Origin: Deltaproteobacteria bacterium
GTDB lineage: Bacteria; Desulfobacterota; JADFXK01
Direction: 5' to 3'
Assembly (NCBI GenBank): GCA_015233295.1
Contig: JADFYC010000003.1
Span: 1-39,722 of the forward strand
DNA: 39,722 nucleotides
Shown here: one piece after another, positions 1 through 34,258 of the stretch
How the letters are laid out: each line of letters starts with the position of its first letter
Position numbering within the stretch: the stretch's first letter is position 1
Program-made: the position numbers and the translations under genes
The notes under the pieces: generated by a model
Told to the model about the DNA's origin: nothing
What the model saw: only the letters and a program-made list of their open reading frames with translations
Databases searched by the model: none

Positions 1-1
1 T

Positions 2-514: not shown

Positions 515-520
515 AACAAA

Positions 521-534
521 GCGGAAGGCTCCGC
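521..534 (+). terminator. Weak hairpin after the transposase stop
   Basis: GCGGA-AGGC-TCCGC starts 7 nt after the TAA at 512-514 and is followed by T-rich ATCTATTTATT. The stem is only 5 bp. Confidence 0.3.
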
Positions 535-890
535 ATCTATTTATTGGAAGAGTTTTTCGCCTTTCGGGGAATCCCATGTTTTATAAAATAAGGCAGGACA
601 AATAGCCCTGCCTCATGGTCTTCCCGCCCGCCTCGGCGCTCAGGTTGCTCTCCAGCATGGCCTTATCCTCCGAGCGGGCAAGGTAATTATATCAGGAAAT
701 AAAAACAGAGTGAACACAAATGTCGTCTCCATATTGGATACAACACCCAAACCAAAATCGAGATGACTTTCCACCTTAAAAAGACCCAAAATTTGTCTTG
801 ACGATGGGGAGCACCTCATAACAACCCTATAAAACGCTGGAGTTAACGTTTGGATGATTATAATCAGAGAATACCTTGAAAGGAATATAG

Positions 891-2066
891 ATGGACCCTG
901 CAAAAATCCCCACTCAGTTTGCATCAGCCGAGAGAAGTTCAGACGAAGAAATAAAGCACCACATTGAGCTCTTTTCTAACAAGCCGTTTTTAAATGATTT
1001 TTTAAACACTGTTCCTGATATTGTAATGGTTTTAAATAAGAATCGGCAGATTGTGTACTCTAATCAAATTTTGCTCAAATTCTTAGGGGCTAATGATTTG
1101 GGTTTTGTCTGCGGCCGGCGGCCAGGTGAAGCTTTTAATTGCATTCACTCAGATGAAACAGAAGGCGGCTGCGGCACTACCGAATTTTGTAAAACTTGCG
1201 GTGCTGTTAAAGCTATTTTAGCTTGTCAAAAAGGCATATCTGATATCCAAGAATGTAGAATTATAAGAAAAGGGACTGGAGATGCTTTAGACCTGAGAGT
1301 TTGGACCAGACCATTGAAAGAGGGTGATGAACTGTTTACTATTTTCTCGGTAACGGATATAAGCGATGAAAAACGCCGCCGGGCTTTAGAAAGGATTTTT
1401 TTTCATGATGTTCTTAATACTGCAGTCGGACTGAGGGGCTTCTCCCAACTTCTCGAGGACGCTACGGCGGATGATATGGCAGGATATCAAAAAATAATTA
1501 ATCAACTGTCCGAATGTATAATCGATGAAATAAATGCTCAAAGGCAGCTAACCGCGGCTGAAAACGATGAATTGGTTGTTGATCTGATTTCCGTTAACAG
1601 CCTTGATATACTGCAGGAACTAATGGTCATCTATATGAATCATCAAGTGGCAGAAGGTCGTCACCTCAGTATTGATCCTAAGTCTATAGGCGTTGTCTTT
1701 ACCTCTGACAGGACTCTTTTAAAACGCGTCATAGGGAATATGACCAAGAATGCCTTGGAGGCCGCCAAAGACGGTGAAACTGTCACTATCGGTTGCGAGA
1801 CCAGAGATGATGAAATTCAGTTCTGGGTGCATAATCCAAGGGTAATGCCAGAAGAAACACAGTTGCAGATGTTCCAGCGTTCATTCTCCACTAAAGGCGC
1901 CGGCCGTGGCCTTGGGACCTATAGCATGAAACTGCTAACCGAAAGATACCTCAAAGGAACTGTTTCCTTTACCAGTGCCCCAGGAAGCGGCACCGTATTT
2001 AGAGCATGTTACCCTTTAATTTTTGATCAAGAGACAATTCCCTCTGACTCCTCAAAGGCGTGTTAA
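891..2066 (+). CDS. Cytoplasmic PAS-type sensor histidine kinase with a Cys-rich insert
   Basis: PAS-like start (VPDIVMVLNKNRQIVYSNQILLKFLG). Candidate H-box FFHDVLNTAVGLRGF. HATPase_c motifs NMTKNALEA and GRGLGTYSMKLL. No TM segment and no adjacent response regulator. Confidence 0.85.
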   Translation: MDPAKIPTQFASAERSSDEEIKHHIELFSNKPFLNDFLNTVPDIVMVLNKNRQIVYSNQILLKFLGANDLGFVCGRRPGEAFNCIHSDETEGGCGTTEFCKTCGAVKAILACQKGISDIQECRIIRKGTGDALDLRVWTRPLKEGDELFTIFSVTDISDEKRRRALERIFFHDVLNTAVGLRGFSQLLEDATADDMAGYQKIINQLSECIIDEINAQRQLTAAENDELVVDLISVNSLDILQELMVIYMNHQVAEGRHLSIDPKSIGVVFTSDRTLLKRVIGNMTKNALEAAKDGETVTIGCETRDDEIQFWVHNPRVMPEETQLQMFQRSFSTKGAGRGLGTYSMKLLTERYLKGTVSFTSAPGSGTVFRACYPLIFDQETIPSDSSKAC

Positions 2067-2218
2067 GCTAGTCTATTGCTGATCTATAAGGCGAGGCAGT
2101 ATGATAAAAGATGCAAGCAACAAGGCACAATGCATGATTTGATTATATAAAACTCTATAGGAAGCCTTCTTCTATAAGTATTTTATATCAATAGTAAAAC
2201 TTGCGTTGCTGGGCTTCC

Positions 2219-2329
2219 TCAGAGATGGCCATGTTCCATGGAGGCCGCATAAGTTTGTGCGGAATTAAGATTGCTAAGAGAAACAGCGAAGAAAATTCCA
2301 ACCAGCAATCGATTCAATGCTGTCTTCAT
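2219..2329 (-). CDS. 36-aa signal-peptide-like small ORF (relic or leader of a third paralog)
   Basis: MKTALNRLLVGIFFAVSLSNLNSAQTYAASMEHGHL* resembles the signal peptide of the 791-aa protein (MKRALSLLFVGIFLAISFNFLHIATVYAEP). It lies directly downstream and co-directional with 2458..3759. The RBS is weak. Confidence 0.3.
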   Translation of the reverse strand: MKTALNRLLVGIFFAVSLSNLNSAQTYAASMEHGHL

Positions 2330-2457
2330 CGTAACCCCATTTCTATTTTGATGTTTGGTTATCTCAAAGGCCTTAACCGCCCTGTGATAGTTAATATCAC
2401 AGGTAGGTAAAACTAAGAGAAGGAGACAATAAGAGCTTCTGGAATGTCTTCCTTTTC

Positions 2458-3759
2458 TCAATCAGAAAGGAATGCCGAATCCGGGATGTTGGGCATCGGA
2501 ATGCGATCCGAGTACAAGAAGGCTGTCCCCTTCTCGTTGGTTTGGGTGTGGCGGAGGCTGCGAATGCTCTCCTTCTGTCCGGCATCCATGGTCTTGTAAG
2601 TTGATGCGAAGGCGGTCGCATATTCGTAGGCCAGCTCGCCGTCAAGCCGCCCGTAGCGCTTCCCCAGGGTTACAATCTCCTGTTCCGCAGGAATCTCGCC
2701 GCGCAGGAATCCCCGCAGCCTGGTAGAGATAGTGCGCCGGACTTCAACAATATCCCTAAGTGTTTTTCGCTGGCGGTCAAGCACGTCCGTGAGTCGGGAA
2801 CGCTGACTTGTATCCAGTACGTTTAAAAATGTGGCACCGGAGTCACCTGTGAGCGAGGTCGAAATGTCGTAATCCCTTCGCCCCATGGCCGGCATGTCTT
2901 TTAGATAAAAACCGCCGAAGTAGGTTCCATGGCGCTCGGGACAGAAATATGTGTCCGCCTCGATGGAGCCTGCATACCAACTGAAAAATTCACTGGCCAG
3001 AGTCATGTATCCAACGCTCACGAGCTTGGAGGAGCCGCGGGGAAGTAGACGGCGCACTTCCTCCCGATCTACATCCGGCCAGGTATTGAAGTCGCCGAAC
3101 TTTAGCCTACCCAGATTCCGTTTCTGTTCGGCCGTAAAAGAACGGACCAACTCCCCGAACACCTTAGCCCGGCGAAAGGCCAGAGTAGCGTCTAGGGCGA
3201 ATAGATCGGCGCAGTAGGCCATGACAGCCTCACGATTCAAACCGGTGTTGCCGACGAGCTGCTTGTGGAAGGCGGCGATCAGCGGGAAACGCTTGAGTGC
3301 AATATTCTTCATCAGGAGTTCCTGTTCTCGGGCGGCTTCGTAAAACCTCCTGCGCTGGTCTTCCGAGAGAATCCTGAGCACGTTGCCGGCAATGCGGTCG
3401 AGGAACATTGGGTTGTGTCCCTTGCCTGCTGCGTCGATGTCCCGCATGTACTGAAACCCGAAGAAATCTGACACCTTGCCGGGGGGAATGAAGGTGGAAC
3501 TGCCGAAATCGCCGGTGAGGAAGGCCAGGCCGTTGAAGGCGATGGTATGAAGCTGGGCCTGATCGGAGATAGCCTGCTCGATTGAGTATCGTTGTCTGTC
3601 ATCTCGTGGCTGCTGTCCCCGTCTGTCATCACGTGGCTGCAGCCCCAGCGGAGGAGGCCCTGCCCCCCTTGGAGATGGTTCCGGCGGCCTATCCTGGGCC
3701 ATGGCAACCGTCGCACACAGGCTCATGACCACAATAAGGAGCTTACTTGCTGTTTTCAT
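2458..3759 (-). CDS. Secreted protein of unknown function, paralog of the N-terminal domain of 3854..6229
   Basis: Signal peptide MKTASKLLIVVMSLCATVAMAQ and RBS AAGGAAA. Collinear similarity to the 791-aa neighbour: DQAQ..TIAF.GL, PPGKV.D..GFQY.RD.D, GHN..FL.R.A.NV, YFCPERHGTYFGGFYLKDMPAMG. I do not recognise the family. Confidence 0.8.
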   Translation of the reverse strand: MKTASKLLIVVMSLCATVAMAQDRPPEPSPRGAGPPPLGLQPRDDRRGQQPRDDRQRYSIEQAISDQAQLHTIAFNGLAFLTGDFGSSTFIPPGKVSDFFGFQYMRDIDAAGKGHNPMFLDRIAGNVLRILSEDQRRRFYEAAREQELLMKNIALKRFPLIAAFHKQLVGNTGLNREAVMAYCADLFALDATLAFRRAKVFGELVRSFTAEQKRNLGRLKFGDFNTWPDVDREEVRRLLPRGSSKLVSVGYMTLASEFFSWYAGSIEADTYFCPERHGTYFGGFYLKDMPAMGRRDYDISTSLTGDSGATFLNVLDTSQRSRLTDVLDRQRKTLRDIVEVRRTISTRLRGFLRGEIPAEQEIVTLGKRYGRLDGELAYEYATAFASTYKTMDAGQKESIRSLRHTQTNEKGTAFLYSDRIPMPNIPDSAFLSD

Positions 3760-3853
3760 AGTATCATTTCCTTATATGAGGTTATGCTGATCCGGCAGGG
3801 GCTGCTCCGGCAATCTTGCGCCATCACAACCCCTGCGGTCAGGCTAACGCCGA

Positions 3854-6229
3854 CTACTTGACGACAAGTGTCTTGCTCGTGGTGTTGGTACCCTGTGCAT
3901 TCTTGACCGTAAGAGTGACTTTGAACGTGCCGGCAGCCGAATAAATGTGGCCCGGACTCGGGAGCACACCTGTTGTTTTGTCACCAAAGTCCCAGGACCA
4001 CGATGTGGGTGTTCCCGTGCTGGCATCGGTGAATTGCACCTTCTGGTTATGGACAGGCGCCCTCGGCGTGTAGTTGAAAACGGCCGTAGGAGCGATTCCG
4101 GTGACAATTATAGTCTTGGTGACGGAGTTTGAGCCCAAGGCATTGCCAGCCTTGAGGGTGACCGTATACGTACCTGCAGCCGAATAGACGTGGTTCGGTT
4201 TCTGGATCGAACTGGTCATGCCGTCACCAAAGGTCCAGGACCACGACGTGGGGTTTCCCGTGCTTGTATCGCTGAAATTTATCGTTTGGCTGGTTTTGGG
4301 GGCGCTCGGGGAGTAGTTGAAAGCTGCAACAGGCACTATTCCTACGGTTATGGAGTTACTGTAGGTGCTGGTGCCCACCGCATTACCGACCTTGAGGCTG
4401 ACCGAGTACTTGCCAGCGGCCGAATAGATGTGGCTGGGGTTCTGGATCGTGCTAGTGCTAGTCGTACTGGTGTCACCAAAGGTCCAGGACCACGTGGTGG
4501 GCTTTCCGGTGCTGGTGTCCTTGAACTGGACTATTTGGCCGGGCTTGGGGGCGCTCGGGGCGCAGGTAAAAGCCGCGGTCGGCCCGGACCCTGTGGTGGT
4601 TACGGTTATGGACTTGGTTACGGTTTTGGAACTCGTGGCATTGCTGGCCGTGAGAGACACCGTGAACGTGCCTGCGGCCGAATAGGTATGGCTGGGGTTC
4701 TGGAGCGAACTCGTACTAGTAGCACTGCTGTCACCAAAGTTCCAGGCCCACTTTGTGGGTGTTCCGGTGCTGGTGTCGGTGAACTGGACCATCTGGCCCA
4801 CTGCCGGAGTAGCAGGCAAAAACGTGAAGGCCGCGGTTAAGGTGGTGGATCCTGTGTTAAACAGATAGTCGGTGTTGGCGATATACGGAGTGAGGAGACC
4901 AAGATTGGTGATGACATCTGAATACAGGAAAGGCGTCGTGCAGACTGAAAAGTCGAATGGGGTCCCATCCGCGTACTTGCCGGACAAGATGGATTTCCGC
5001 AGGGCAGTCAGTTTAGTCTTCTGGTCAGTCGTCAAACTGGCGTAGACCTGAGCAAAGACCGTGGCGTAGTTATAGTTGTTCTCGCCATCCAGGTCGCCGT
5101 AGGTTCCTGATAAGGCAAGCACCTGGGTTTTGACGGAATCAGCTGAGGCGGTTGAGGTCAAAAGGCTGCGCAATAAAGTGGAGATTTGCGTCCGAATCTG
5201 GACGATGTTGGAGGTACCCGCATAGAGATTGTTCCTCTGGGTGTCCACCAGGCTCGAAAAATATGCTGCCTGACTTTGGGTGACGTACCCCTTGGTACTG
5301 TCGCACAGGGCCGCTCCGGCGGTGGCGGTGAGCTGTTCACTGATGCTATATCCTTCGTGCCCGACCGCTGGAGCGTCTTTCATGTAAAAAGATCCATAGT
5401 AGGTTCCATGACGCTCGGGGCAAAAATACACATCCGCAGTCACGGATCCTGCATACCAGCTATAGATGTCACTGGCATAAGTCATCACGGCCACGGCTGT
5501 GCCTTGGGGCAGGCTGATCATCTTGGCGTTAATCTGAGCGCCCGTGATGTTGGGCCAGGAATTAAAGCCTTTGCCTTTCATGGCATCCAGATAGGCCTTC
5601 TGGGTGGAATCCATGGAGTTGAGGATTTTGGCGTACAGTAGGGCGCGGTCGAAGCTGATCTGACCGTCAATCAGGTACAGAGCGTTGGAGGCCGCCTTTA
5701 CGGCGGTGAGACTTAGACCCGTAGAACCGGAGGGAATGTTGCCGTCGACGAGACGCCGAAAAGCCTCCATCAAAGCGAAGCGTTTGTATCCGTAGAGACT
5801 GACCTGGTCTGCCTGGGCGAGGGCCAGCGTCACCATCTGTGCGAGTTGGGTGGAGTTCAGGATGTAAATGACATTGTTGGCCACCCTGGTCAGGAAGCTG
5901 GTATTGTGACCCATGTTGTCCGGGTCGTTGTCGCGCAGATACTGGAACCCGGTATAATCGGCCACCTTACCCGGTGGGAAGAAGGATTGGGAATCCAGGT
6001 TTCCGGTCATAACGCCCAAACCACCGAAGGCGATGGTTGTGACCTGGGCCTGATCAGAAAGAGTATCGGCCAGGGTGAAGGCAGGAGTTGTTGTGGTCGT
6101 ACTCGTAGCCTCAGTGCTTTGCAGGGTATCGTCAGGTGTGGGTTCTGCATAAACTGTGGCTATATGAAGAAAGTTGAAGGAAATAGCCAAAAAAATGCCG
6201 ACAAACAATAAACTCAATGCCCTCTTCAT
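3854..6229 (-). CDS. Secreted protein: unknown N-terminal domain plus four C-terminal PKD domains
   Basis: RBS AAGGAGG and a signal peptide. The N-terminal ~460 aa are paralogous to 2458..3759 (YFCPERHGTYYGSFYMKDAPAVG). The C-terminus has four repeats of the PKD pattern (F.D.STG.PT.W.W.FGD....S....P.H.Y..AG.Y.V.L...N..G), roughly nt 3857-4830. Confidence 0.9.
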   Translation of the reverse strand: MKRALSLLFVGIFLAISFNFLHIATVYAEPTPDDTLQSTEATSTTTTTPAFTLADTLSDQAQVTTIAFGGLGVMTGNLDSQSFFPPGKVADYTGFQYLRDNDPDNMGHNTSFLTRVANNVIYILNSTQLAQMVTLALAQADQVSLYGYKRFALMEAFRRLVDGNIPSGSTGLSLTAVKAASNALYLIDGQISFDRALLYAKILNSMDSTQKAYLDAMKGKGFNSWPNITGAQINAKMISLPQGTAVAVMTYASDIYSWYAGSVTADVYFCPERHGTYYGSFYMKDAPAVGHEGYSISEQLTATAGAALCDSTKGYVTQSQAAYFSSLVDTQRNNLYAGTSNIVQIRTQISTLLRSLLTSTASADSVKTQVLALSGTYGDLDGENNYNYATVFAQVYASLTTDQKTKLTALRKSILSGKYADGTPFDFSVCTTPFLYSDVITNLGLLTPYIANTDYLFNTGSTTLTAAFTFLPATPAVGQMVQFTDTSTGTPTKWAWNFGDSSATSTSSLQNPSHTYSAAGTFTVSLTASNATSSKTVTKSITVTTTGSGPTAAFTCAPSAPKPGQIVQFKDTSTGKPTTWSWTFGDTSTTSTSTIQNPSHIYSAAGKYSVSLKVGNAVGTSTYSNSITVGIVPVAAFNYSPSAPKTSQTINFSDTSTGNPTSWSWTFGDGMTSSIQKPNHVYSAAGTYTVTLKAGNALGSNSVTKTIIVTGIAPTAVFNYTPRAPVHNQKVQFTDASTGTPTSWSWDFGDKTTGVLPSPGHIYSAAGTFKVTLTVKNAQGTNTTSKTLVVK

Positions 6230-9922: not shown

Positions 9923-10560
9923 ATCCTGCTCCCGTCGTTAAGCCGGAGACAAAGTCGAAGACAAAACAGAAAAAGACAACCTCAAAATCTGGCATCCAGA
10001 GAGGGTAACCAGTGGCAAAATAGTCCAAGTGTGAAAGGTGTGGGTTTGAAGCCAAGACTTTCGCTGGACTCAAGCTCCATATGCGCAAACATGATCAGGA
10101 TGGAGAAGAGGATCAACAAGGTATGGATTTTACTGCTACAACACCTGGCGAAGGAACAGAACTCCAACAGCAGAGCAGCCAGTCATCAAAACGAAGAAAG
10201 CCCAAAAAAGAGCTACCAGAAGCTGATTGTCTCTCATAATTTTAGAAATCATTGATACCTGGGAACGTGGCTCCAACACTGTCGAGACTCTATCCAAAAA
10301 GTATAAGGTCTCAACTGGAGAAGTCAATAGGGTCATCGGTATGCTGAGGAAAGCAGCCATGAAGCCAGAAGGAGAAGCAGCACCGGCTTTTCTTTGTCCT
10401 ATCACCTTAGAGGAAGTGGTCAGTTCAGCTTTAGCCCATCGGGGAATGAAGCTGCCGAAATAAGTTCTGAACGCGGCCTTCAGGACGGACACCCACCTTG
10501 AGGGAGGAAACTGGCAGCAACGCAGCAGAAAGGATAACAACCCCAAAAAGGATGATATAA

Positions 10561-12091: not shown

Positions 12092-12928
12092 TCAACCTAT
12101 ACATGTCTTCCTGAATTGACATCCTTGACACTGCCAGCCGGTTGACCTATAGAAGATTCGATTCTCAATGGCTCGGAGTAGCGTGTTTATCAGTTCAAAC
12201 AATCGGTTATAGTCCTCCCCAGACCTGGAAACGAAGTATCTCTCAAAGGCAGGCTCTTTTGTCTTGAGCAAAACATCGAATCTGATCAGACAGGAGCCAT
12301 CCGACATGGCTGGATTGAGCTTTGACGACGCATAGGAGTATATCGTGGATTGTAGGTCGTTCTCCAGTCTCAGGGTATTGAACCGTTGGGAGGCCGTCTT
12401 CAATTCACCGACAAGGATCGTTCCTTCGCTATCAGCTTCAATCAAATCAAAATATCCAACCAGTTTGATGGGGTGTTCTCCATTATCGCTGCTCGTGTCA
12501 GGAATCGGTACAGAGAACGGCATTTCAACGGCGACTATGTGCTGTGGTTCGATTTCGGTGTAGAACAACTTCAGCAAATTAATACCTTGGGTGGTCAGGC
12601 CATCAGCCTTCTCTCCCTCCTTGAAGCTGACTGGAATTTCGTTATCCATGAGCCCGTATTCAAACGAATGTCGGAAGAAATCGATCAGATGATCCAAGGG
12701 CAACGTCTCTTCTATATCCTTGAGGTAGAGATAATACTGTTCGACCGCCCTGTGGATGGCCTTGCCAAAGACCATGGCGACGGGGCGATGCTCCGGGACT
12801 GATCCGTAAACATAGGAATGGGCATATTTCATAGGGCACAGTAAGTAGGTGTTCAACTGTGAATAGGAGAAATGCAGCTCATTCCCGAAGTCGGCTCCCG
12901 AAACTTTACCCTGCGTTTGTGATCTCAT
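12092..12928 (-). CDS. PD-(D/E)XK exonuclease, Cas4/RecB-like, with a four-Cys cluster
   Basis: N-terminal CPMKY plus C-terminal CQGCQFRKTC gives C...C-x2-C-x5-C. Nuclease motifs are GYFDLIE...LVGELKT (D...ExK) and QSTIY (QxxxY). I prefer the start at 12928 (GGGAGG RBS); the ORF is open to 12979. Confidence 0.8.
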   Translation of the reverse strand: MRSQTQGKVSGADFGNELHFSYSQLNTYLLCPMKYAHSYVYGSVPEHRPVAMVFGKAIHRAVEQYYLYLKDIEETLPLDHLIDFFRHSFEYGLMDNEIPVSFKEGEKADGLTTQGINLLKLFYTEIEPQHIVAVEMPFSVPIPDTSSDNGEHPIKLVGYFDLIEADSEGTILVGELKTASQRFNTLRLENDLQSTIYSYASSKLNPAMSDGSCLIRFDVLLKTKEPAFERYFVSRSGEDYNRLFELINTLLRAIENRIFYRSTGWQCQGCQFRKTCIG

Positions 12929-14349: not shown

Positions 14350-17300
14350 CTACGTCCCTTGGCGTAAGGGTACCCGAATGACCTGATCCACAGTCAAGCT
14401 GACCGCTCTGTATTCTGTTTGCACCTGGCCTGTCAGAAGATGGGGACGGTCCATGTCCAGTTGTTGACAGAATCGTTTAAAGGCCTTGGGGAAGAACACG
14501 GTTTCGTAAATAGCGGTCTCGTCCTCAAAGGAGAAAAATTGCATCGGTTCACCCTCGCGGGTGGCCACCTCTTTTCGGGAAATAGGCCAGCCTTTGACTG
14601 TGACCCACCGGCCGTTCTTTCCAACCAACTCATCAGCGGAAGTGATGACTTGGCAACAAGTAATAAAATATGATTCATATAGTTTCAGCGGATGGACGGA
14701 CAGGACAAACCCCAGGGCCTCTATTTCCTGGGCGCATTTCTGGGTTAGAGATATATCCGACAGGGATGGGACCTGGATCTGATTCCTGGACGCGTTCAGA
14801 TGAAAAGAGGATTGCAGGGAACCAAGAGACTTTGATTTCGTTTCCCGACCCAACCGGCTTTCCACATACCACCTGATCTGGGGTCGATTGAATTCGGGAG
14901 CCAAGGAATCCAACGCCCCACTCCTGACCAGTATCGACCCGTTTTCCGAATGGAGCCTGACTCGCTTGATCAAGTCAGCTAACGAGGCAAAGGACCCCTG
15001 TTGGTGGCGTTCTTCTAAGATGTTCTCCACGGTTTCTCGCCGAATACCCTTGAGTTGTTGCAGCCCCACCCGAATGGTCCGGTCCCGGCCCAGGTAGGCC
15101 CAGTCGCTGGTGTTGATATCGGGTCCTAAGACGGTCAACCCCATCCGGCGGGCCTCTGAGATGTAAGCCGAGGTGGTATAGTATCCACCCTGATTGGAGA
15201 TCACTGCAGCCATGAATTCCGCCGGATAATGGGCTTTCAAATAGGCGGACTTGAAACTGACCAAAGCATAGGAGGCAGAATGGGGCTTGCAGAAAGAGTA
15301 GCCGGCGAATGAGGTGATCATATCCCAGACTTGGGCGGTGACTTCAGCCGACACCCCTCGACCGGCACACCCTTCAAAGAACCGGGTTCGATATTGGACC
15401 AGCTTTTCGGTTCCCTTTTTGCTCAAGGCCTTGCGTAATCCATCGGCCTCACCCCAATTAAACCCGGCCATGGCCATGGCCACCTTGACCACATCCTCCT
15501 GATAAACCATGATCCCATAGGTCTCGGACAGTAGATCGGTCAGGCTAGGGTGCAGAGGTTTATAAGCCGCTCCACGCAATCTATTAATATACTGATTAAT
15601 GTATCTATTGGCCGCTGGTCGAATTATGGATGAATGGATGACCAGGTGTTCAAAGTCACCCCGGCGGGTCTTTTGTTGGAGTTGACGCATGGCCGGTGAT
15701 TCGACATAGAACACGCCCATGGTCTCTCCCCGGCTGAGCAGCTTCAGAGTAGCAGAGTCTTCTAAAGGATTAAACAGGGCGTAGTCTATTTTCCGTCCAG
15801 TATTGACCGCCACCGCAGCCAAGGCGTCTCGAATTACGGCCAAAGAGCGATTCCCCAAGAGGTCGATCTTGATCAAACCGGCGTCTTCGGCCTGATCCTT
15901 TTCCCACTGGATGATATTGACGCCTTTGGCAGCCCGTTGCAAGGGCACGTATCTGGAGATGTGGTCCGGAGCCAGAATAACGCCCCCACAATGGACGGAC
16001 AGGTGACGAGGAATGGACTCCAATTGCGCGGCTAGTCGAAGGATCTCAGGCCAAGGCTGGGGTAAGGAGAAGTCTTGAAATTTAGGATGGGTTTCGATGC
16101 GCTGATCGATCCGATGAACGCCGACCCAGCCCAGGCGTTTGGTCACCTGGTTAATCTGGGCGGAAGGTATTCCATAGATTTTGGCCACTTCACGCACCGC
16201 CCCACGGGCTTGGAATCCGATATGGTTGGCCACCATAGCCATCCGGTCTGAACCATAATGTTCCCTTATTTCGGCTAACAGCCCATCCCGCTCATCCCAG
16301 GGAAAATCCACATCGATATCCGGAAAATCATTCCGATGGGGATTCAAGAACCGGCCAAACAAGAGATTGTGCCGGATGGGGTCCACATGGGTGATGCCCA
16401 ACACGTAACTGACCAGACTGGCCGCCGCACTGCCCCGACCGCAATGGATCAGGCGGCGTTTGACAATATCGGCCACGATCAGGAAATAATCTACAAATCC
16501 TTTGGATTGGATCAGGTTCATTTCTTCGGTCAGCCGGTTCTCAATGGTCGGGTTAGAACGACCGTAACGCCAGATGATTCCCTTCCGGCACATGGCCCGG
16601 AGCCGACTGAAATGATCCTCCGGCTGGTCATCAAAGCTGGGGAAAACCGGCTTAAAATGATCCCATTGGGTGTACAGATCCCCGGCTAACTTGACTGTAT
16701 TGGCCAGGGCTTCCGGGCAATAAGGGAAATGAGCTTATATCTCCTTTTCCGGTTGGAGCCATTGTCCGGGACTGACTGTTTCCGCAGGTGGTAAAGTGCT
16801 TAAGGTCTTGTTTAGGTCAATGGCCCGGACCAATCGGTGCAGGGGGTAGTCATCGGGCTGGGCGAAATAGACCGCATTGGTGGCCACCGCCGGTAGACCC
16901 AAGTCTCGGGACAGATGCCAGGCCCGACGGCCGACGGGACCAGGGACTACCTCCACCCAGCAGTCCGCTCGGGATCGCACGGCCTGCAACATCTCGGGAT
17001 CATTGCTTAAGACAGCCAGATGCTCATGGCAAACGGGTAATTCCACCTTGAGGGAGAAATCTGCGGTTAGATGCCGCCGGGTGATCAAGTCCGAAAGGAT
17101 CTCATAACCGGTCAAGGTCTTGATCAAAATCACCGCCGCCTCGGACGCCGTCTGGAGATATGCCCCGACCAGCGGGGTCAACCGAAGGGCTTTGGCAGCA
17201 GCCACGAAATTGATCAGACCGTAAAATCCGTTGGTGTCGGTCAAGGCGAGGTGAGTGGCTCCATTGGCGACGGCAGTCCGGCAGAGTTCGGCCACGGAGC

Positions 17301-17355
17301 TGACGCCCTGCATCAAGGAATAACAAGAATGAACATGTAAGTGGATAAAGGACAT
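14350..17355 (-). pseudogene. dnaE2: Error-prone DNA polymerase III alpha (DnaE2) interrupted by one in-frame TAA
   Basis: The PHP domain (FIHLHVHSCYSLMQG...) in ORF 16735..17355 and the Pol III alpha core in ORF 14350..16593 are in the same frame. The sequence reads ...[28 protein letters not shown]... and aligns residue-for-residue with the DnaE region [28 protein letters not shown]. Total length is about 1000 codons. Confidence 0.85.
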
Positions 17356-17372
17356 GGTTGCTCATGGCTCGG

Positions 17373-18533
17373 TTATATGGTCCGTCCCCAATTGAGAGCC
17401 TGCGACCCGAACCGGGTTCTGATCGTGTCCACGGCCTTCTGTAATTGCTCATCCCGGCGCAGATCGGTTTCTTCCCAGGGAAAGAGCGAGAGCTGGCGAA
17501 CCGGCATAGTCAAGTCCCAGATGATCAAGATCAGACGGCGGACGGCCATTCGTCTCTGCAGGAGATGATCCAGAGCCGGCAGCAGTGATTGAAACAGCAT
17601 CAGATCAAGATTGGATTTATTTTTGTGGAACCGGTCCCGGTGGTGGCCGATCCGGCCGTCGGCGTAGCGCCATTCCAGATCGAACCAGCCGGGATAACGG
17701 TTATGCCGACGGAGGGTCCATCCCGCTTCCTCCACCAGTCGAAACAAGGCGGCTGATAATGCTTCCTTGTCGATCTCATCTTTATCCAAATTGCGGACAA
17801 AACGGAGTTGAGAGGCGACCTGGAACGGCACGACCGGGGATGTGTCTTCCCCGTGGGCCAGCCGGGCCAATCTAGCGCCTTGTTGACCAAACACCCCGGT
17901 CAGCGTATCCACCTTTAAGGCGGCCAGTTGTTCCACCCGCTGGATATTGAAATCCGTTAAGGCGGCCATGGGCTTGGGACCGATCCCCGGCAGGCTGGCC
18001 ACTGGTAGAGGATCAAGGAAGGTTGGCTCCCCGCCGGGAAAGATGCGACATAATTCACCCGGAGACATAAACTGAGCCGCCACCTGGCTGATCAATTTAT
18101 TGGCCGCCAATCCCAACCTGCCGCGTAATTGCCGCCGTGTCCACAACTCCCGTTCCAAACGGCAAACAGCATCGGCCGCATGACCCCATAACCGCTGCGT
18201 TCCGCTGAAATCGACAAAATAGCGTCCCGGTGTGGTTCCTTCCACCAGCGGTGAGAATTGGTTGAGGTCCTTGAGTATTTCCAGGTGCTGATTTTTATAG
18301 AAGAATAGATCTGGTGGGGTGGTTATCAGGCGCCGACACCGTTGCCGAGCCAGGCTGACCGGCATCCCTTCATAAATTCCTTCCTGGCGAGCTTGGTGAT
18401 TGACGCCTTGGATGACAGACCGGGTATTCTGTTCGGCGATGGCCACCGGTTTGCCTTTAAGCTCGGGCTGCCGCAATTCTTCTATCGACATAGCGAAATC
18501 AGGCAGGTGTACATGAGCGATATACCGGATCAT
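17373..18533 (-). CDS. imuB: ImuB-like inactive Y-family polymerase paralog
   Basis: Y-family fold with the catalytic acids replaced. The N-terminus HVHLPDFAMSIEE aligns with DinB HVDMDCFFAAVE, and FVDFSGTQRLWG aligns with SLDEAYLD. Position between lexA and dnaE2. Confidence 0.75.
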   Translation of the reverse strand: MIRYIAHVHLPDFAMSIEELRQPELKGKPVAIAEQNTRSVIQGVNHQARQEGIYEGMPVSLARQRCRRLITTPPDLFFYKNQHLEILKDLNQFSPLVEGTTPGRYFVDFSGTQRLWGHAADAVCRLERELWTRRQLRGRLGLAANKLISQVAAQFMSPGELCRIFPGGEPTFLDPLPVASLPGIGPKPMAALTDFNIQRVEQLAALKVDTLTGVFGQQGARLARLAHGEDTSPVVPFQVASQLRFVRNLDKDEIDKEALSAALFRLVEEAGWTLRRHNRYPGWFDLEWRYADGRIGHHRDRFHKNKSNLDLMLFQSLLPALDHLLQRRMAVRRLILIIWDLTMPVRQLSLFPWEETDLRRDEQLQKAVDTIRTRFGSQALNWGRTI

Positions 18534-18554
18534 GAGAACCTCTGACTTTGATCA

Positions 18555-19202
18555 TTAAGAATTGTGGTGGTATGGGCTGGAAAATGGAGCCCGGTAATGG
18601 CGCAATAACCCAACCACTAGTCCAATAATGGCCACGTCTTCTTCGGATTTGAACAGAGGTTTCATTTTAGTGTTGGCCGGTCTTAGTTCGATTTGACTGC
18701 CCTGGCGGTAATATTTCTTAACCGTGGCCTCGCCAACCACCATGGCCACCACTGTTTGCCCGTTGTCGGCGTGATTTTGTTTGGTGATGATCAAGACATC
18801 ACCGTCCTTGATGCCTTCATCGATCATGGATTCCCCCCGGACCTTAAGTGCGAAGTTTAGCCCACCCCCGAGAAATGTTTCCGGCACTTCAATGGACTCC
18901 GGAATTTCCGGGGCCTCAATCGGTGTCCCGGCGGCTACCACCCCCAGAAAGGGAATGGACACCGCACCCAGCTTAAGAGGGACCAGTTCCAAGACGCGCT
19001 TTTGGTTGCCCCAGGGACTGGCCAAGTAACCGCGGCGTTCCAGTTGTTTCAGATGTTTGTAAACTGAGTTCAATGACTTATACCCAAAATTCCGTCTTAT
19101 TTCTTCATATGAGGGGGTGTATTCATGCTGCTTGATGTAATCTTGCAAGAAGCGATAGACACGTTCCTGAGCCGGGGTGAGCCCTTGGGGGGATTGGTCC
19201 AT
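18555..19202 (-). CDS. lexA: LexA repressor (S24 peptidase)
   Basis: wHTH (LTPAQERVYRFLQDYIKQHEYTPSYEEIRRNFGYKS), VAAG cleavage region, Ser/Lys dyad context (VRGESMIDEGIKDGDVLII ... EATVKKY). I prefer the start at 19202 (GGAGGA RBS); the ORF is open to 19247. Confidence 0.9.
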   Translation of the reverse strand: MDQSPQGLTPAQERVYRFLQDYIKQHEYTPSYEEIRRNFGYKSLNSVYKHLKQLERRGYLASPWGNQKRVLELVPLKLGAVSIPFLGVVAAGTPIEAPEIPESIEVPETFLGGGLNFALKVRGESMIDEGIKDGDVLIITKQNHADNGQTVVAMVVGEATVKKYYRQGSQIELRPANTKMKPLFKSEEDVAIIGLVVGLLRHYRAPFSSPYHHNS

Positions 19203-19398
19203 GGTCAATCCTCCATAATTATTGGCTGTCATGTTTATTAATAACAAACCTGTTTGGTTAAGCTGACCTGGTTATGTTGAACGTAATCAGCTTGAGGCTG
19301 CTGTTGGTATCTAATCGCACTATAGGTGAATAAAAGGTGAAAGTCAAGCAGAGAGCTTTCCGGAGGGAGTTAGGCGAAGCGGAGGTCGGCAAAATATA

Positions 19399-29609: not shown

Positions 29610-29897
29610 ATGACTTTTAAAGAACATTGCGCCGAATCCACAAAGCTGTTTGGCCTGGCATACGAGGAAGTCCACCGTTGGTTGGACGAGTTTATGAATT
29701 CCCAGGAATATGGGATGCGGCATAGGAAGAAGAGACATCACGAGGCCGGGATAAGGCAGGTGATCACCCTATTTGGTGAACTGTCAGGACCGGTGGCCCG
29801 TCAGCATATTATCTCCGACCTGAAGCAGGAAGGCTGGACCGAACAAGACCCATTCCCCAAAGACGAGGATGATTTCGTCAAGATTGGGTTCTTCTGA
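29610..29897 (+). CDS. Small conserved-looking basic protein, unknown function
   Basis: MTFKEHCAESTKLFGLAYEEVHRWLDEFMNSQEYGMRHRKKRHHEAGIRQVITLFG...DLKQEGWTEQDPFPKDEDDF. A GGAGA RBS precedes the ATG at 29610. Confidence 0.55.
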   Translation: MTFKEHCAESTKLFGLAYEEVHRWLDEFMNSQEYGMRHRKKRHHEAGIRQVITLFGELSGPVARQHIISDLKQEGWTEQDPFPKDEDDFVKIGFF

Positions 29898-29973
29898 CCG
29901 CGGGATAATGCCCTGCCACAGCAAGGCCTGGTCTTGGTCTATATTCAACAATCACGAAAGGAGGGGTATCAAA

Positions 29974-30579
29974 ATGGAAATATTAAGGGTCAATGACGTA
30001 AGCGTGGCGGCACAACCGGCCATGGCCATAGAATTTCCCACGCTGGAGCAGGTGCGGCTTTCCGATCATTACTTTACGGAACCGAGTTCAGTGAAGTTGG
30101 TCCATTACATCCCGATCAAGAAACCGACCAGATATGAATACCTCACGGTGTGGGACCGTGACGATATGATCCTCCGGGTCCTCATCTTGGATATGAAGGA
30201 CGATTCAGGGATACACCTGGTGTCCCCCAGCTTATCGCCGACTCTGGAGGGATTAGCCAAGCCCACCGCCTTGTTCTTGTCTGTCAATCGGGCGGGAGAT
30301 CATTTCCTTTGGCCCGTTCAGCTTCCTGGGCCGGATGGTCGGTGGAATCCTTGGCACCAGTCGGCCATGGAGGCGGTCAATCTGGCTAAGACAAATTGGG
30401 TCCGGGTTCAGGCGAACCTGAGTCTCGGGGCATATGATATCTACAGGGCCACAGCAAGCATTCCGGACCCTGAATGGCCGGATATCACTCTTGATGAAAT
30501 CCTGAAGATGGCTTTCCGGGATCGGTTTATCAATTCCCTTGAACACCCCATCTTGAAACGGTTGCGGGGCGAAATCTAA
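29974..30579 (+). CDS. Unknown 201-aa protein translationally coupled to the PolA-like gene
   Basis: RBS AAAGGAGGGG before the ATG at 29974. The stop overlaps the polymerase start (TAATG at 30577-30581). No motif I can assign. The C-terminus reads EWPDITLDEILKMAFRDRFINSLEHPILKRLRGEI. Confidence 0.65.
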   Translation: MEILRVNDVSVAAQPAMAIEFPTLEQVRLSDHYFTEPSSVKLVHYIPIKKPTRYEYLTVWDRDDMILRVLILDMKDDSGIHLVSPSLSPTLEGLAKPTALFLSVNRAGDHFLWPVQLPGPDGRWNPWHQSAMEAVNLAKTNWVRVQANLSLGAYDIYRATASIPDPEWPDITLDEILKMAFRDRFINSLEHPILKRLRGEI

Positions 30580-32309
30580 TGACCGGGTGGGCTGGCTGCT
30601 TTGATGAGATTTGGGCGGTGGACTTTGAATTCCATTGCCCGCCGGGTGAGCGACCTCAACCGATTTGTCTGGTGGCTCAGGAAATCTACTCAGGGCGGAT
30701 TGTCCGGCTATGGGAGGATGATTTAGTCCAGATGAAGGGGTCACCATTTCCTGCTGGAGATAAATCCCTGTTCGTGGCCTTCTATGCCTCGGCGGAGTTT
30801 GGCTGTTACCTGGCATTGGGGTGGGCCATGCCGGTTTGGGTCCTAGACCTATTTGTAGAGTTCCGCTGCTTAACTAATGGTCGTGTCCTCCCGTATGGCT
30901 TCAGCCTGTTGGGGGCGGCCCTACACTTCGGATTACCAGAGACAGAGGCAGCAACAAAGGAAGATATGCGTGGTCTGGCCATCCGGGGCGGCCCATTCTC
31001 AGAAGAGGAGAAAGTCGATCTGCTGAATTATTGTGAGGCGGATGTCCACATCACCGCAGAGTTATTCCATAAAATGGTCGGGCTGATCGACTGGTCCAGG
31101 GCCTTGTGGCGGGGGCGGTACATGAAGGCAGTGGCCAGGATGGAATACTTTGGTGTTCCCATAGATACAGCGTTGTTGAGTTTGCTTAAGGCTAGGTGGC
31201 CGGACATTCAAACAAACTTGATCCAGGAGATTGACGTTGATTATGGCGTATATGAGGGCCGGACATTCAAGATTGACCGGTTTGAGGCATGGCTTTCCAA
31301 GAAGGGTATTACCTGGCCCCGGTTGCCGTCCGGCAGGCTCGATTTGTCAGATGATACCTTCCGGGAAATGGCCAGGTCTCACTATCGGGTGGCACCATTG
31401 CGGGAGCTGAGATCGTCGCTGGGGCAGATGAGGCTAAATGACCTTGCCGTGGGTGCAGATAGGAGGAACCGGACCCTATTGTCGCCTTTCCGGTCCAAGA
31501 CGGGGCGGAATCAACCAAGCAACAGTAAATTCATCTTCGGCCCATCGACCTGGCTTCGGTCCCTGATCAAGCCTGAGCCGGATCATGGCCTAGCCTATGT
31601 TGATTGGTGTCAACAGGAATTTGGAATTGCAGCTTATCTCTCCGGTGACCCGAACATGATCAAATCCTATGAAAGCGGAGATCCCTACCTTGAATTCGCC
31701 AAGTTGACCGGAGGTGTTACACTGGATGGAACGAAAGAGAGTCATCCCCGAGAGCGGGATTTGTTCAAGGCATGCATCCTTGGTGTCCAATACGGCATGG
31801 GATCCAAATCCCTGGGGTTCCGGATCGGGATGTCGCCTTGTTATGCTGAAGAACTAATCCGGATGCACCGGAGAGTGTTCAGCATCTTCTGGATCTGGTC
31901 CGATAATCTGTTGGAATTTGCCTTGATCCAGATGAAAATTAAGACTGTCTTCGGTTGGGAATATAGAATCACCGGAAAACCAAATCCCAGGTCAATCAGA
32001 AATTTCCCTATTCAGGCAAATGGAGCTGAGATGCTGCGGTTAGCCTGTGTCTTCATCACCGAAATGGGTATTGAACTCTGTGCTCCAGTCCACGATGCCG
32101 TCCTTATACATTTCCCGCTGGACAAAGAACAGCAGATTATTTCTGCAACACAACAAGCCATGAGTGATGCCTCGGCGGCGGTGTTGGGTGGCTATAGGCT
32201 GCGGCCAGACGTCAGCTTGGTCAGATATCCCGGCCGATATCAAGATGACCGTGGCGCCAAGATGTGGGAAACCGTGATGAGGATTATAACTGACCGCAAC
32301 GTGTCATGA
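30579..32309 (+). CDS. Family A DNA polymerase, 3'-5' exonuclease plus polymerase domains only
   Basis: Exo I AVDFEF and Exo III NYCEADV (YxxxD). Pol motif A LAYVDWCQQEFGIAAYLSGD, motif B RDLFKACILGVQYGMG, motif C PVHDAVLI. 576 aa with no 5' nuclease domain. Confidence 0.9.
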   Translation: MTGWAGCFDEIWAVDFEFHCPPGERPQPICLVAQEIYSGRIVRLWEDDLVQMKGSPFPAGDKSLFVAFYASAEFGCYLALGWAMPVWVLDLFVEFRCLTNGRVLPYGFSLLGAALHFGLPETEAATKEDMRGLAIRGGPFSEEEKVDLLNYCEADVHITAELFHKMVGLIDWSRALWRGRYMKAVARMEYFGVPIDTALLSLLKARWPDIQTNLIQEIDVDYGVYEGRTFKIDRFEAWLSKKGITWPRLPSGRLDLSDDTFREMARSHYRVAPLRELRSSLGQMRLNDLAVGADRRNRTLLSPFRSKTGRNQPSNSKFIFGPSTWLRSLIKPEPDHGLAYVDWCQQEFGIAAYLSGDPNMIKSYESGDPYLEFAKLTGGVTLDGTKESHPRERDLFKACILGVQYGMGSKSLGFRIGMSPCYAEELIRMHRRVFSIFWIWSDNLLEFALIQMKIKTVFGWEYRITGKPNPRSIRNFPIQANGAEMLRLACVFITEMGIELCAPVHDAVLIHFPLDKEQQIISATQQAMSDASAAVLGGYRLRPDVSLVRYPGRYQDDRGAKMWETVMRIITDRNVS

Positions 32310-32336
32310 GATAAGCCTGAGACCCAGTATCCCCCG

Positions 32337-32385
32337 GCACCCCTACCAGGTATTCTGTCGCAACATAGGGGTGCGGTAGAATACC
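32337..32385. repeat. Two interleaved inverted repeats (A-B-A'-B' order)
   Basis: A is GCACCCCTA (32337-45) and B is GGTATTCT (32349-56). A' is TAGGGGTGC (32366-74) and B' is AGAATACC (32378-85). It lies 28 nt after the polymerase stop. Confidence 0.6.
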
Positions 32386-32602
32386 GACTATCTATCTTTT
32401 TATAGAGTCTCTTCTTAATGTTATCGGATAAATTAAATGTTCTTGGTCCAGATGATTCCAAGATATAGTCCGGGGGGGATTGGATGAAAGGCAGAAGGAC
32501 AGAATCAGATGAACCACATATCCGCCCCTTGCCTAGCTCTATCCTGCCTCATGGCGCGACAGATAAAGCATAAGATTCCCCCCCCAACCAAGGAGATTAT
32601 CA

Positions 32603-32959
32603 ATGATGGCAATTGAATCATGGAGGTTACCGGAAGAGAAGGTTGATGGTACGCCATATTTGAGCAAGGTTCTCCCGGTCACCCAGACCCAAGGTTTCAT
32701 AAAGGGGCCTATTCCGCTATCCTGGGTGAAGGAGGTTTATAAAACTATTCCCAAGAGCGGAGCGAATATTATCCTGCTGTTGTTCTATTTGAGAGGGCTT
32801 AACCAGAATAGGCCCTTCAAAATAACCCGTGAACGAGCAAGACAATTCGGGTTATCCCGCTGGTCTTTGAGCAGGAGCCTCCGGACTCTGGCACAAGCCA
32901 AGTTAATCACGGTTGAACGGCTGCCCGGACAAGCTCCATTGGTGTATGTCTGTGTATGA
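32603..32959 (+). CDS. Small winged-helix/HTH DNA-binding protein (Rep- or regulator-like)
   Basis: RBS AAGGAG 7 nt upstream. The C-terminal half (ITRERARQFGLSRWSLSRSLRTLAQAKLITVER) reads as helix-turn-helix plus wing. It lies next to iteron-like repeats. Confidence 0.55.
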   Translation: MMAIESWRLPEEKVDGTPYLSKVLPVTQTQGFIKGPIPLSWVKEVYKTIPKSGANIILLLFYLRGLNQNRPFKITRERARQFGLSRWSLSRSLRTLAQAKLITVERLPGQAPLVYVCV

Positions 32960-33193
32960 GTCTAAGATAACTGACCATCTTGGACGTGCTTAGAGTTAAA
33001 CCCTCCTCACCCGAGAGTGGTTTAGCCAGCGGCGATTAAGGAAATGTCAAGACGACCTGCCCAAGATGACGATTCGATGACTTTATATTGAGCACCAGTT
33101 GACTTAAAACTATAAGAAGGATCATTCTTCTTTTATCTGGTGAGGGTTGACCAGCGCCTCCGGCTGCGGCCGCCCTCCGGTCCCAGGGAGAAA

Positions 33194-33355
33194 AGTCTTT
33201 AACAAATGCCGGAAGCGCCAGTCTTGGCTAATATGCCATAGATAGCCTGAAAAGGCAACGATTGCTCTTTATGGAGATGTACTTGGCCGGACGCCTCTGG
33301 CGGCTATTGACATCGTTGGGGGACAAGTCTTGGCTAAAATGCCGAAAGCGTCCGG
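33194..33355. repeat. Iteron-like direct repeats (candidate replication origin or operator array)
   Basis: AGTCTTTAACAAATGCCGGAAGCGCC (33194-), AGTCTTGGCTAATATGCC (33220-33237) and AGTCTTGGCTAAAATGCCGAAAGCGTCC (33326-). An AT-rich stretch (about 33085-33140) and a GC-rich CCTCCGG x2 / GCGGCCGC segment (33155-33185) precede them. Confidence 0.55.
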
Positions 33356-33707
33356 TGAATACAACCATGCCAGAATTGGACGTGGAAGGCAAGTCACGAG
33401 ATGCCTATTTAGGCCCGAAATGCTCCTCTGACTGGATTGATTACGTTCAGACAAGTTATGATGGTGTTAGTTCCACTGTTTCGGTTTCCGGAAAATTAAC
33501 CAAAGGATCCATAATGAAATGATGCAACAGTTACAAGTGTGGGTCGAGCAGAAAATATCCTCAAATAGACTGGTGAACCCGGCAAACATACGATATACTC
33601 GTGCCATTGAATCCGACCAGGACAGGGACTATCTTGGCCTTTTCCCTATTTGCTAGACGGTTCGGAGTCAAGGTAATGTATCCTTATAAATAAGGAAGGT
33701 GGACACA

Positions 33708-33950
33708 ATGATTAACGATCAATTTACCAACGCCATGGCCATGTTCGATAAAAGTGATTTGCAGGGCTGTGGAAAAGCATTAAAGGTCGGGATACTGAAC
33801 CTGACCGATGCAGACCGAGCAGCTATGGCCGAACTGGATCATGATGAGCTTTGCGATCTATGGGTTGCCTGTGACATGGCCAATCTTACCGACGTCAAGG
33901 AAGGCCCGATAAAAGACTTCTGCGACAAGGTGGACGCCCTGGGCAACTAA
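33708..33950 (+). CDS. Hypothetical 80-aa acidic protein
   Basis: RBS AAGGAAGG before the ATG at 33708. The ORF MINDQFTNAMAMFDKSDLQGCGKALKVGILNL... has no recognisable motif. Confidence 0.45.
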   Translation: MINDQFTNAMAMFDKSDLQGCGKALKVGILNLTDADRAAMAELDHDELCDLWVACDMANLTDVKEGPIKDFCDKVDALGN

Positions 33951-34084
33951 AAGACCCCTTCGGACATCCTAAAGATGTTCAAGAAATAGAAGTGGGATGG
34001 CGACACCTCCGTTCGGTGATTGGTGCTAAGGCCACCACCGGATGAGTCCATTCCCAGAGATTGAACCATATTGAGGTGACACCA

Positions 34085-34258
34085 ATGGACAAACCGACTT
34101 GCTCATTCTGCTTCTTCTTCTCACCAGGTGGTTGCCAGGGCCGTGGCCTTTGCCGACGGTTCGACAAACCAAAAACCCGGCTGTGGGTTCCCGGTTGGCC
34201 AAAAGTCCACCAGGCGGATCACTGCGAGGTCTTCAGGGTTAAGTTGAGAGAAAGATGA
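34085..34258 (+). CDS. Hypothetical 57-aa Cys-rich protein
   Basis: RBS GAGGTGA 5 nt before the ATG at 34085. MDKPTCSFCFFFSPGGCQGRGLCRRFDK...HCEVF contains CxxC and three further Cys. Confidence 0.4.
   Translation: MDKPTCSFCFFFSPGGCQGRGLCRRFDKPKTRLWVPGWPKVHQADHCEVFRVKLRER

Follow-up and report, generated by a model that had tools for sequence, protein, structure and literature searches.

A conserved trio of P200, a family A DNA polymerase and a winged-helix protein as the probable replication-type core of small integrative elements, with a probably immobilized copy in a Deltaproteobacteria contig

The window analyzed here, a stretch of 39,722 nucleotides (nt) from a Deltaproteobacteria bacterium (assembly GCA_015233295.1, contig JADFYC010000003.1), contains a block of genes that centers on a family A DNA polymerase (PolA) and was described in an original prediction, made from the letters alone, as a compact replication-like cassette. 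Three adjacent genes on the + strand of this block are the subject of the present analysis, namely, the gene of a 201-amino-acid (aa) protein, P200 (29974–30579; 236 aa when read from 29869), the gene of the 576-aa, Klenow-like PolA (30579–32309), and the gene of a 118-aa winged helix-turn-helix (wHTH) protein (32603–32959). The trio is probably the replication-type core of a widespread and apparently unnamed family of elements, and the copy in the window is probably an intact but immobilized derivative of it. The original prediction could not assign the block to any described element class, and likewise no class fitting the family was found in the literature searched, an absence there that is not proof of novelty. 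The open reading frames (ORFs) that it listed were all present, co-directional, and on the + strand.

The evidence for a conserved module was obtained from the gene neighborhood in other genomes. A metagenome search with a P200 profile, which was independent of PolA, gave at least 550 confirmed stretches. PolA was located directly downstream of P200 in 56 of the 57 loci with enough sequence, and a wHTH homologue was found within 500 bp of the PolA stop in 35/40 loci. Thus, the conservation of PolA, the 201-aa ORF, and the wHTH gene as neighbors across genomes, which the original prediction had proposed to examine, was strongly positive, and the contrary outcome that it had considered, a gene set conserved nowhere else, did not occur, as the trio is widely conserved. 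Five loci were recovered from reference genomes of delta-proteobacteria, Planctomycetaceae, and Verrucomicrobiae and of the cultured Verrucomicrobium sp. BvORR034 (L004; NZ_BATQ01000041.1), whose complete element adjoins a tRNA-Met gene. P200 was directly upstream of PolA in all five, and the wHTH gene was directly downstream in four. The junction between P200 and PolA was also tight: among 50 non-redundant junctions, the P200 stop and the PolA start overlapped by 1 or 4 nt in 30, and the gap was at most 12 nt in 43. In the window, the P200 stop overlaps the PolA start (TGATG), and a ribosome-binding site, AAAGGAGG, is located 9 nt 5′ of P200. Judged from this spacing, the junction carries the signature of translational coupling. 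By the same comparison of loci, P200, PolA, and wHTH (29974–32959) alone appear to form the conserved unit of the block. The remaining genes, namely, the DUF6915 gene and the ORFs of 86, 83/80, and 65/57 aa, had no counterpart in 95 related loci, and the block as a single unit was therefore not upheld. Irregular copies of the trio were also observed. In L001 (5949–9674), a tandem partial duplication comprising P200 and the first ~176 aa of PolA was followed by a full P200-PolA pair, and in L003 (7280–7956), P200 was split into two ORFs.

The surroundings of the trio in related loci pointed to integrative elements. When the neighboring ORFs were clustered, one recurrent partner was obtained, a protein of ~367 aa that matches Phage_integrase. 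Tyrosine-type recombinases were the commoner type, with a large serine recombinase in a few loci; in addition, a diverged integrase was identified in L001, and a broader integrase hidden Markov model (HMM) added one in L071. Loci were regarded as fully flanked when at least 4 kb upstream and at least 3 kb downstream of PolA were available, and recombinases were sought from −5 to +4 kb. All 12 of the non-redundant loci with full flanks had a recombinase, as did 19 of the 28 whose flanks were partial, and a tRNA gene abutted the integrase in L006, L011, L025/L033, L038, L042, L056, L065, and L079. Moreover, the same element was found in different flanks: L042 (8471–14058) equaled L043 at 94% over 5.6 kb, and L038 (4102–8667) equaled L054 at 99.5% over 4.6 kb, while the flanks differed. 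Such near-identical pairs imply mobile units of 5.6 and 4.6 kb, and in both pairs the right end was within the 3′ part of a tRNA gene. Similarly, the ends of a 6.9-kb element (L009/L010) lay in tRNA-like fragments, exactly where a contig obtained from a different sample broke. Because of the linkage to recombinases and tRNA genes and the occurrence of the same element in different flanks, the trio appears to be the backbone of compact integrative elements of 4.5–7 kb, often next to tRNA genes. The original prediction had considered that homologous blocks might always be embedded in complete prophages or integrative and conjugative elements; what was found comes near to this but differs, as the parent elements are small units of 4.5–7 kb.

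The content of the elements beyond the trio and the recombinase was variable. In a subset, two proteins precede P200, namely, F8 (~400–450 aa, matching phrog_37634 at E = 2e-18) and F4 (~150–370 aa); the pair was seen in L006 (6988–9140), L070 (3886–5850), L079, L065, and L058, and neither protein had a Pfam domain or a Walker A motif. Unrelated proteins of 366–416 aa occupied this position in other elements. No conserved Walker A/P-loop protein was found in the elements (P200 likewise has no such motif), a Walker A ORF of more than 200 aa being nearby in just 4/48 loci, and the accessory proteins gave no Pfam helicase match. Terminal overlaps, which would mark circular contigs, were detected in no locus. 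In L009, the bracketing tRNA halves belong to different tRNAs, a tRNA-Arg(CCT)-like 5′ part at the integrase side and a tRNA-Thr(CGT)-like 3′ part at the opposite side (5641–5700 and 12470–12530), and ARAGORN calls neither as a gene. The element in L011 adjoins a type I-C CRISPR-Cas locus. The contigs L100–L104, from several samples, were 100% identical to L098 from position 3744 on, and their positions 1–139 were an inverted copy of L098 3490–3631 at 84–87% identity. An inverted repeat is one explanation for this; an invertible flank, or an alternative one, at the left element boundary is another.

As for the copy in the window, no recombinase, tRNA gene, or Rfam RNA was found in the whole window, and the repeat search detected no flanking or attachment-site (att) repeats. 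The HMMs of the integrase, the serine recombinase, F8, and F4 were also searched against the six-frame translation of all 39.7 kb, and neither a match nor a remnant was obtained. The slot where related elements have their integrase is occupied by window-specific ORFs of 80 aa (33708–33950, + strand) and 57 aa (Cys-rich; 34085–34258, + strand), and no integrase remnant was present there. Hence the observation that the block has no other mobile-element hallmarks holds for this window, while it fails for the relatives, in which a recombinase within 5 kb and often a tRNA gene accompany the trio. Since it has no recombinase, tRNA, or att context, the window copy most likely cannot excise. Since a recombinase was near the trio in every fully flanked locus, the copy is best interpreted as the descendant, without integrase, of a small integrative element, rather than as the self-sufficient minimal replicon originally proposed. 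In the simplest reading, the end of the element that held the recombinase was lost, and the remainder was fixed between a kinase gene and the FGE gene.

The polymerase itself was examined by profile, structure, and motif comparison. PolA matched Pfam DNA_pol_A at 2.6e-19, and its AlphaFold2 (AF2) model (mean predicted local distance difference test, pLDDT, 90.4) aligned over its full length with the Bst, Taq, and Aquifex large fragments at a template modeling (TM) score of ~0.7 (Foldseek). The protein begins with the exonuclease domain and has no 5′ nuclease domain. Because the model superposes over its whole length on large fragments, the description of the enzyme as exonuclease plus polymerase only was correct. 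The catalytic motifs were kept (D15/E17, Y151/D155, D342, R393/K397/L401/Y405, and H505/D506), and of the 186 family columns with at least 95% conservation, PolA retained 178, all catalytic motifs included. Motif B reads RDLFKACILGVQYG; in our own alignment, its L401 is equivalent to Klenow F762. The DxE and YxxxD motifs are also present. From the model, PolA is thus predicted to be a proofreading Klenow-like enzyme with intact catalytic motifs. The Klenow and Bst large fragments, which have no 5′ nuclease, are established strand-displacing enzymes; since the window PolA has no 5′ nuclease either, strand displacement is expected of it as well.

PolA is like Pol I (Klenow, Bst, and Taq) in its exonuclease plus polymerase fold and its catalytic motifs, but differs in lacking the N-terminal 5′ nuclease domain and in an identity of only 16–20% to the large fragments. 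The NCBIfam Pol I models gave 46 bits against cut-offs of 600–720 (TIGR00593: 46 vs 600). Many relatives were found at 56–66% identity among metagenomic proteins and proteins of metagenome-assembled genomes from several phyla, the closest being P0002 at 66%; none was found at 90% identity or above. Among 72,556 plasmid and 50,697 phage records, any PolA was just 21–26% identical. The view that the window PolA is not a housekeeping Pol I and that the module is replication-like and of mobile-element origin, as the original prediction had suggested, was supported. In practice, this means annotating the gene as something other than polA and the locus as a probable mobile-element remnant.

P200 is the member of the trio with no name in any protein-family library, despite the size of its family, which comprised 5,230 representatives at 50% identity (E ≤ 1e-3). 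No match was obtained in Pfam, PHROGs, NCBIfam, PADLOC, or the PDB sequences, and no relative was present in the 72,556 plasmid and 50,697 phage records. It is the obligatory upstream partner of PolA in the related loci. In the confident AF2 model (pLDDT 87.7), five strands form a beta core, after which come a helix, two additional strands, and another two helices. The invariant residues were W113, W127, W142, Y154, W168, F181, and H191, and no acidic residue was invariant. This pattern, made up of Trp, Tyr, Phe, and His and devoid of acidic residues, argues for a role in binding rather than for a metal-dependent enzyme. The weak fold matches in the PDB were enriched in OB-fold (oligonucleotide/oligosaccharide-binding) proteins that bind single-stranded DNA (ssDNA) or RNA, such as PrgE, IF1/aIF1A, RPA, and gene V protein (E 0.18–2, TM ≤ 0.25). 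The reading of P200 as an OB-fold or ssDNA-binding protein (SSB) is only suggestive, because no structural match was significant. Matches in BFVD to proteins of phages KPP25 and P70 were dropped, as the candidate genes, picked by length only, were not beside the polymerase. A fusion of P200 and PolA was sought as a sign of contact, and none was found among 81 PolA ORFs. A metagenomic protein of 448 aa (P0283) contains a P200 domain at residues 41–218 and 68 residues sharing 56% identity with the PolA N-terminus, after which the sequence is divergent; this is probably a frameshifted assembly and not a natural fusion.

The third member, wHTH, is a basic protein (isoelectric point, pI, 10.4) with a conserved N-terminal FxKGPIPxxW motif, and the family HMM matched the window ORF at 5.7e-35. 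Against known families, only sub-threshold matches to MarR, GntR, and Crp-type wHTH proteins were obtained. Accordingly, wHTH as a recognizable replication initiator was rejected, since the matches were generic and sub-threshold only. Between PolA and wHTH lies a spacer (32310–32602, unstranded) that may tentatively be viewed as a candidate operator, origin, or promoter region. The interleaved inverted repeats predicted for it were located and overlap each other (32327–32345/32366–32384 and 32349–32362/32372–32385), and the spacer holds a stretch of 35–37% GC (32370–32489). Folded as RNA, the spacer was no better than shuffled sequences (z = −0.5). Measured between the PolA stop and the first wHTH residue in the alignment, the distance was 297 nt in the window, the longest of 20, against a family median of 34 nt. 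The spacer is ~260 bp longer than in any of 19 relatives, and the extra DNA might be a small insertion with its own inverted repeats.

Downstream of wHTH, short direct repeats (33193–33350, unstranded) weakly suggest protein-binding sites. The 18-nt word AGTCTTGGCTAAWATGCC occurs twice, at 33220 and 33326, where chance would give 0.03 occurrences, and a degenerate third copy near 33193 was recognized by eye; shorter repeats with a spacing of 132–137 bp are also present. No tandem array was reported among these repeats by Tandem Repeats Finder. Thus, the claim of iteron-like repeats was retained for the two 18-nt copies and the degenerate one, and it was not retained for an array. The repeats also overlap an 86-aa ORF that has no homologue in related loci. 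Iterons as a feature of the family were rejected, as repeat scans of five complete elements gave no common pattern; among these, L042 alone has a small CCTGTGCG cluster, at its PolA-wHTH junction. The AT-rich segment that had been noted is present, and it is modest, with 35–39% GC over ~80–120 bp.

Taken as the replication-type core of an integrative element, the trio could act as follows. The recombinase would excise the complete element as a circle, and the basic wHTH protein would bind the element DNA, either as an origin binder or as an autoregulator or operon repressor. The strand-displacing PolA, together with P200, would then copy the circle. Translational coupling would set a fixed proportion of P200, which may bind ssDNA and/or PolA and thereby contribute to priming or processivity, much as the MP/SSB partner does in CcPol-MP. 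As the elements encode no helicase, unwinding would be accomplished by strand displacement or by the host. At the window locus, the three proteins could still be made and could synthesize DNA, with no mobilization in the absence of the recombinase. A more specific proposal, which is tentative and rather unlikely to be right as it stands, is that P200 and PolA form a two-subunit replicase in which P200 enables self-started chains independently of CcPol-MP or serves in protein priming via Tyr154. If this is true, elements of 5 kb that integrate at tRNA genes would replicate without a helicase, primase, or Rep protein, and they would be the PolA counterpart of pipolins, widespread in Gram-negative and uncultured phyla.

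To our knowledge, integrative elements with a polymerase of their own comprise those with family B enzymes, namely, casposons and pipolins, and the PolA-SSB islands of Bacillota, in which a helicase is always added. The PolA-SSB (CcPol-MP) primase modules are found in SCCmec and other genomic islands of Bacillota (Bebel 2020, PMC7581432; Rice 2023, PMC10061031) and provide the precedent for a primase composed of PolA and a small partner on mobile elements (PMC10061031, PMC7581432). These modules and the pipolins are the nearest functional analogues of the trio, which lacks defining features of both. The trio resembles the PolA-SSB modules in several respects. Both have a family A polymerase that is co-expressed with a small, adjacent, beta-rich partner having no recognizable sequence family, and both are found in integrative elements with a site-specific recombinase. 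Some of the described polymerases keep the full 3′–5′ exonuclease domain, as does the window PolA, in which the family A catalytic residues are intact (D342, R393/K397/Y405, and H505/D506). Unlike the PolA-SSB modules, the trio family has a wHTH gene after the polymerase. The PolA-SSB recombinase is a large serine enzyme acting at rlmH or ssrA, whereas that of the trio family is mostly of the tyrosine type and tRNA-targeted, and it is missing from the window while being present in all 12 well-flanked relatives. The hosts also differ, with Bacillota on one side and Gram-negative phyla and uncultured lineages on the other.

Several observations weigh against the proposed interpretation and have to be set beside the evidence above. 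The partner in PolA-SSB modules is downstream of the polymerase, between it and the helicase, whereas P200 is upstream. P200, compared with MP by description, has ~200 aa, about twice the size of MP, and is no minimal OB barrel. A COG3378/D5-type or DUF927 helicase is present in every described PolA-SSB case, and the trio elements have none. The Foldseek search of the P200 model against the PDB gave nothing significant (best E = 0.18), and that against BFVD gave only marginal matches to uncharacterized phage proteins (TM up to 0.44). A copy of the tRNA 3′ part at the far end was found in none of ten tRNA-linked elements, either by exact search or by short BLAST. As for the window copy, P200 deviates at several near-invariant positions, and PolA has 8 deviations at highly conserved columns, where the median for the family is 2 and the largest number is 11. 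Finally, all three window genes are intact, which fits a recent loss of the integrase and domestication equally.

Pipolins, which are self-replicating integrative elements encoding piPolB (PMC5695915, PMC11551731), resemble the trio elements in having their own DNA polymerase and tyrosine recombinases, in insertion at tRNA genes, and in having no helicase of their own. They use a primer-independent family B enzyme, whereas the polymerase of the trio belongs to family A. Furthermore, the trio elements are far smaller (4.5–7 kb), have little or no cargo, and carry the additional, obligatory P200 and wHTH. A tyrosine recombinase, a tRNA site, and direct repeats are characteristic of pipolins; the window has none of the three, and the relatives have the integrase beside a tRNA gene with no far-end repeat.

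The CHEAPs (cluster 15 of Czernecki 2023) have polymerase and exonuclease activity and are reported to be the closest relatives of CCPols (PMC10201439). The window PolA is like them in its exonuclease plus polymerase composition, in having all catalytic motifs and a C-terminal helix, and in coexisting with Pol I. By motif comparison, it also shares the diagnostic Leu at motif B position 3. CHEAPs are described as cellular proteins with no known partners and no mobile-element context (PMC10201439), whereas the PolA of the trio has both a partner and an element context.

This likeness bears on the first of the rival explanations, according to which the trio has been domesticated as a host accessory polymerase for replication or repair, like a CHEAP or an APEX PolA beside Pol I, and the mobile link is merely historical. 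That the three genes are intact despite the missing recombinase and that the neighborhood of the block is an ordinary chromosomal one would agree with domestication, as would the Leu at motif B position 3 and the long C-terminal helix shared with CHEAPs (PMC10201439). However, every fully flanked relative has a recombinase, and no relative at 90% identity or above, which would show vertical retention, was found. In addition, PolA identities of 56–60% between phyla point to horizontal spread, and decayed copies exist, namely, L003 with its split P200 and L001 with its partial tandem copy. Domestication was thus considered unlikely as an account of the trio.

A polymerase-based anti-phage defense or accessory system carried as cargo by small islands, which the original prediction had offered as one option, was judged to be very unlikely. 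PolA matches the PADLOC model RTasPolA at 1.9e-25, the relative L011 is located beside its type I-C CRISPR-Cas locus, and DUF6915 homologues occur near WYL regulators and AAA ATPases. However, the PADLOC match is to the generic polymerase domain only, the other five proteins of the block match no PADLOC defense model, and no PADLOC system was matched by anything more than this generic PolA model. Moreover, no conserved effector-like domain (nuclease, toxin, or NTPase) was found, and in elements of 4.6–5.6 kb, the trio and the integrase make up nearly the whole element, so the trio would be the backbone and not cargo.

The last rival, a decayed fragment of a prophage replication module, was held to be the least probable of all, since only 4 trio-family loci were found among 2.9 million IMG/VR contigs, P200 was not in 50,697 phage genomes, capsid, portal, and terminase genes were not found in the other well-flanked loci, and the delimited elements are just 4.6–5.6 kb, although PolA matches phrog_17, the accessory protein F8 matches a PHROGs family as given above, and L013 has a terminase gene downstream of PolA. 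In this IMG/VR locus (L013, 5359–7492), P200-PolA is located 1–3 kb upstream of an invertase-type small serine recombinase and a terminase large subunit, so that a phage genome contains or adjoins the module in one lineage or more.

If the trio is indeed the core of an integrative element family, this family would add to the polymerase-carrying elements a helicase-less PolA type with a compulsory partner, P200. Its abundance, given by the P200 representatives counted above, extends over several bacterial phyla. It would also provide a mobile-element context for auxiliary PolAs that are currently annotated as DNA polymerase I and an opportunity to look experimentally for a new mode of priming, or of boosting, family A polymerases. 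As a compact replicon and polymerase pair, it may be of biotechnological use.

The other genes of the block appear, from the locus comparison, to be unrelated neighbors of the trio. The gene at 29610–29897 (+ strand) encodes a 95-aa protein of the DUF6915 family (Pfam PF21866) and adjoins the conserved module without belonging to it. This protein had been described as basic, but its pI is 5.8, and it has only a local RHRKKRHH patch. Homologues with 62–76% identity were found in Desulfobacterota in variable contexts, some of them mobile-element-like, and none of their neighbors was related to P200. The gene is common in that phylum, which hints at the lineage of the host. DUF6915 was accordingly rejected as a module member, since it was missing from all 95 trio loci and had no P200-related neighbors. 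The 80-aa and 57-aa ORFs had no family match in the library searches; the former is a gene called by NCBI and forms a singleton cluster. In a different mobile-element region, in Desulfatibacillum alkenivorans DSM 16219 (L112), a D5-type helicase is followed by an 856-aa fusion of a Zn-ribbon primase, exonuclease, and PolA (1–4049), and a DUF6915 gene (10001–10288) is located 6 kb downstream of the fusion together with DUF932, PDDEXK, and an integrase fragment. This fusion was rejected as kin of the window PolA, with an identity of 25%.

The block is bordered by ORF-poor flanks with no family matches, and the lengths of 899 bp on the left and 629 bp on the right agree with the original prediction. 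Its account of the neighbors was likewise borne out: a CHASE/PAS histidine kinase and a hybrid kinase are located on the left, and an FGE-sulfatase gene, confirmed by Pfam, also adjoins the block. Elsewhere in the window, a cassette of the SOS-mutagenesis type is present on the − strand (14350–19247), comprising a LexA-like repressor (18555–19247), a Y-family ImuB-like protein (17373–18533), and a DnaE2-type Pol III alpha subunit. The dnaE2 frame is broken by one in-frame TAA (16735–16737) into ORFs of 206 and 747 aa; this may reflect pseudogene formation, an error in sequencing, or a site of recoding.

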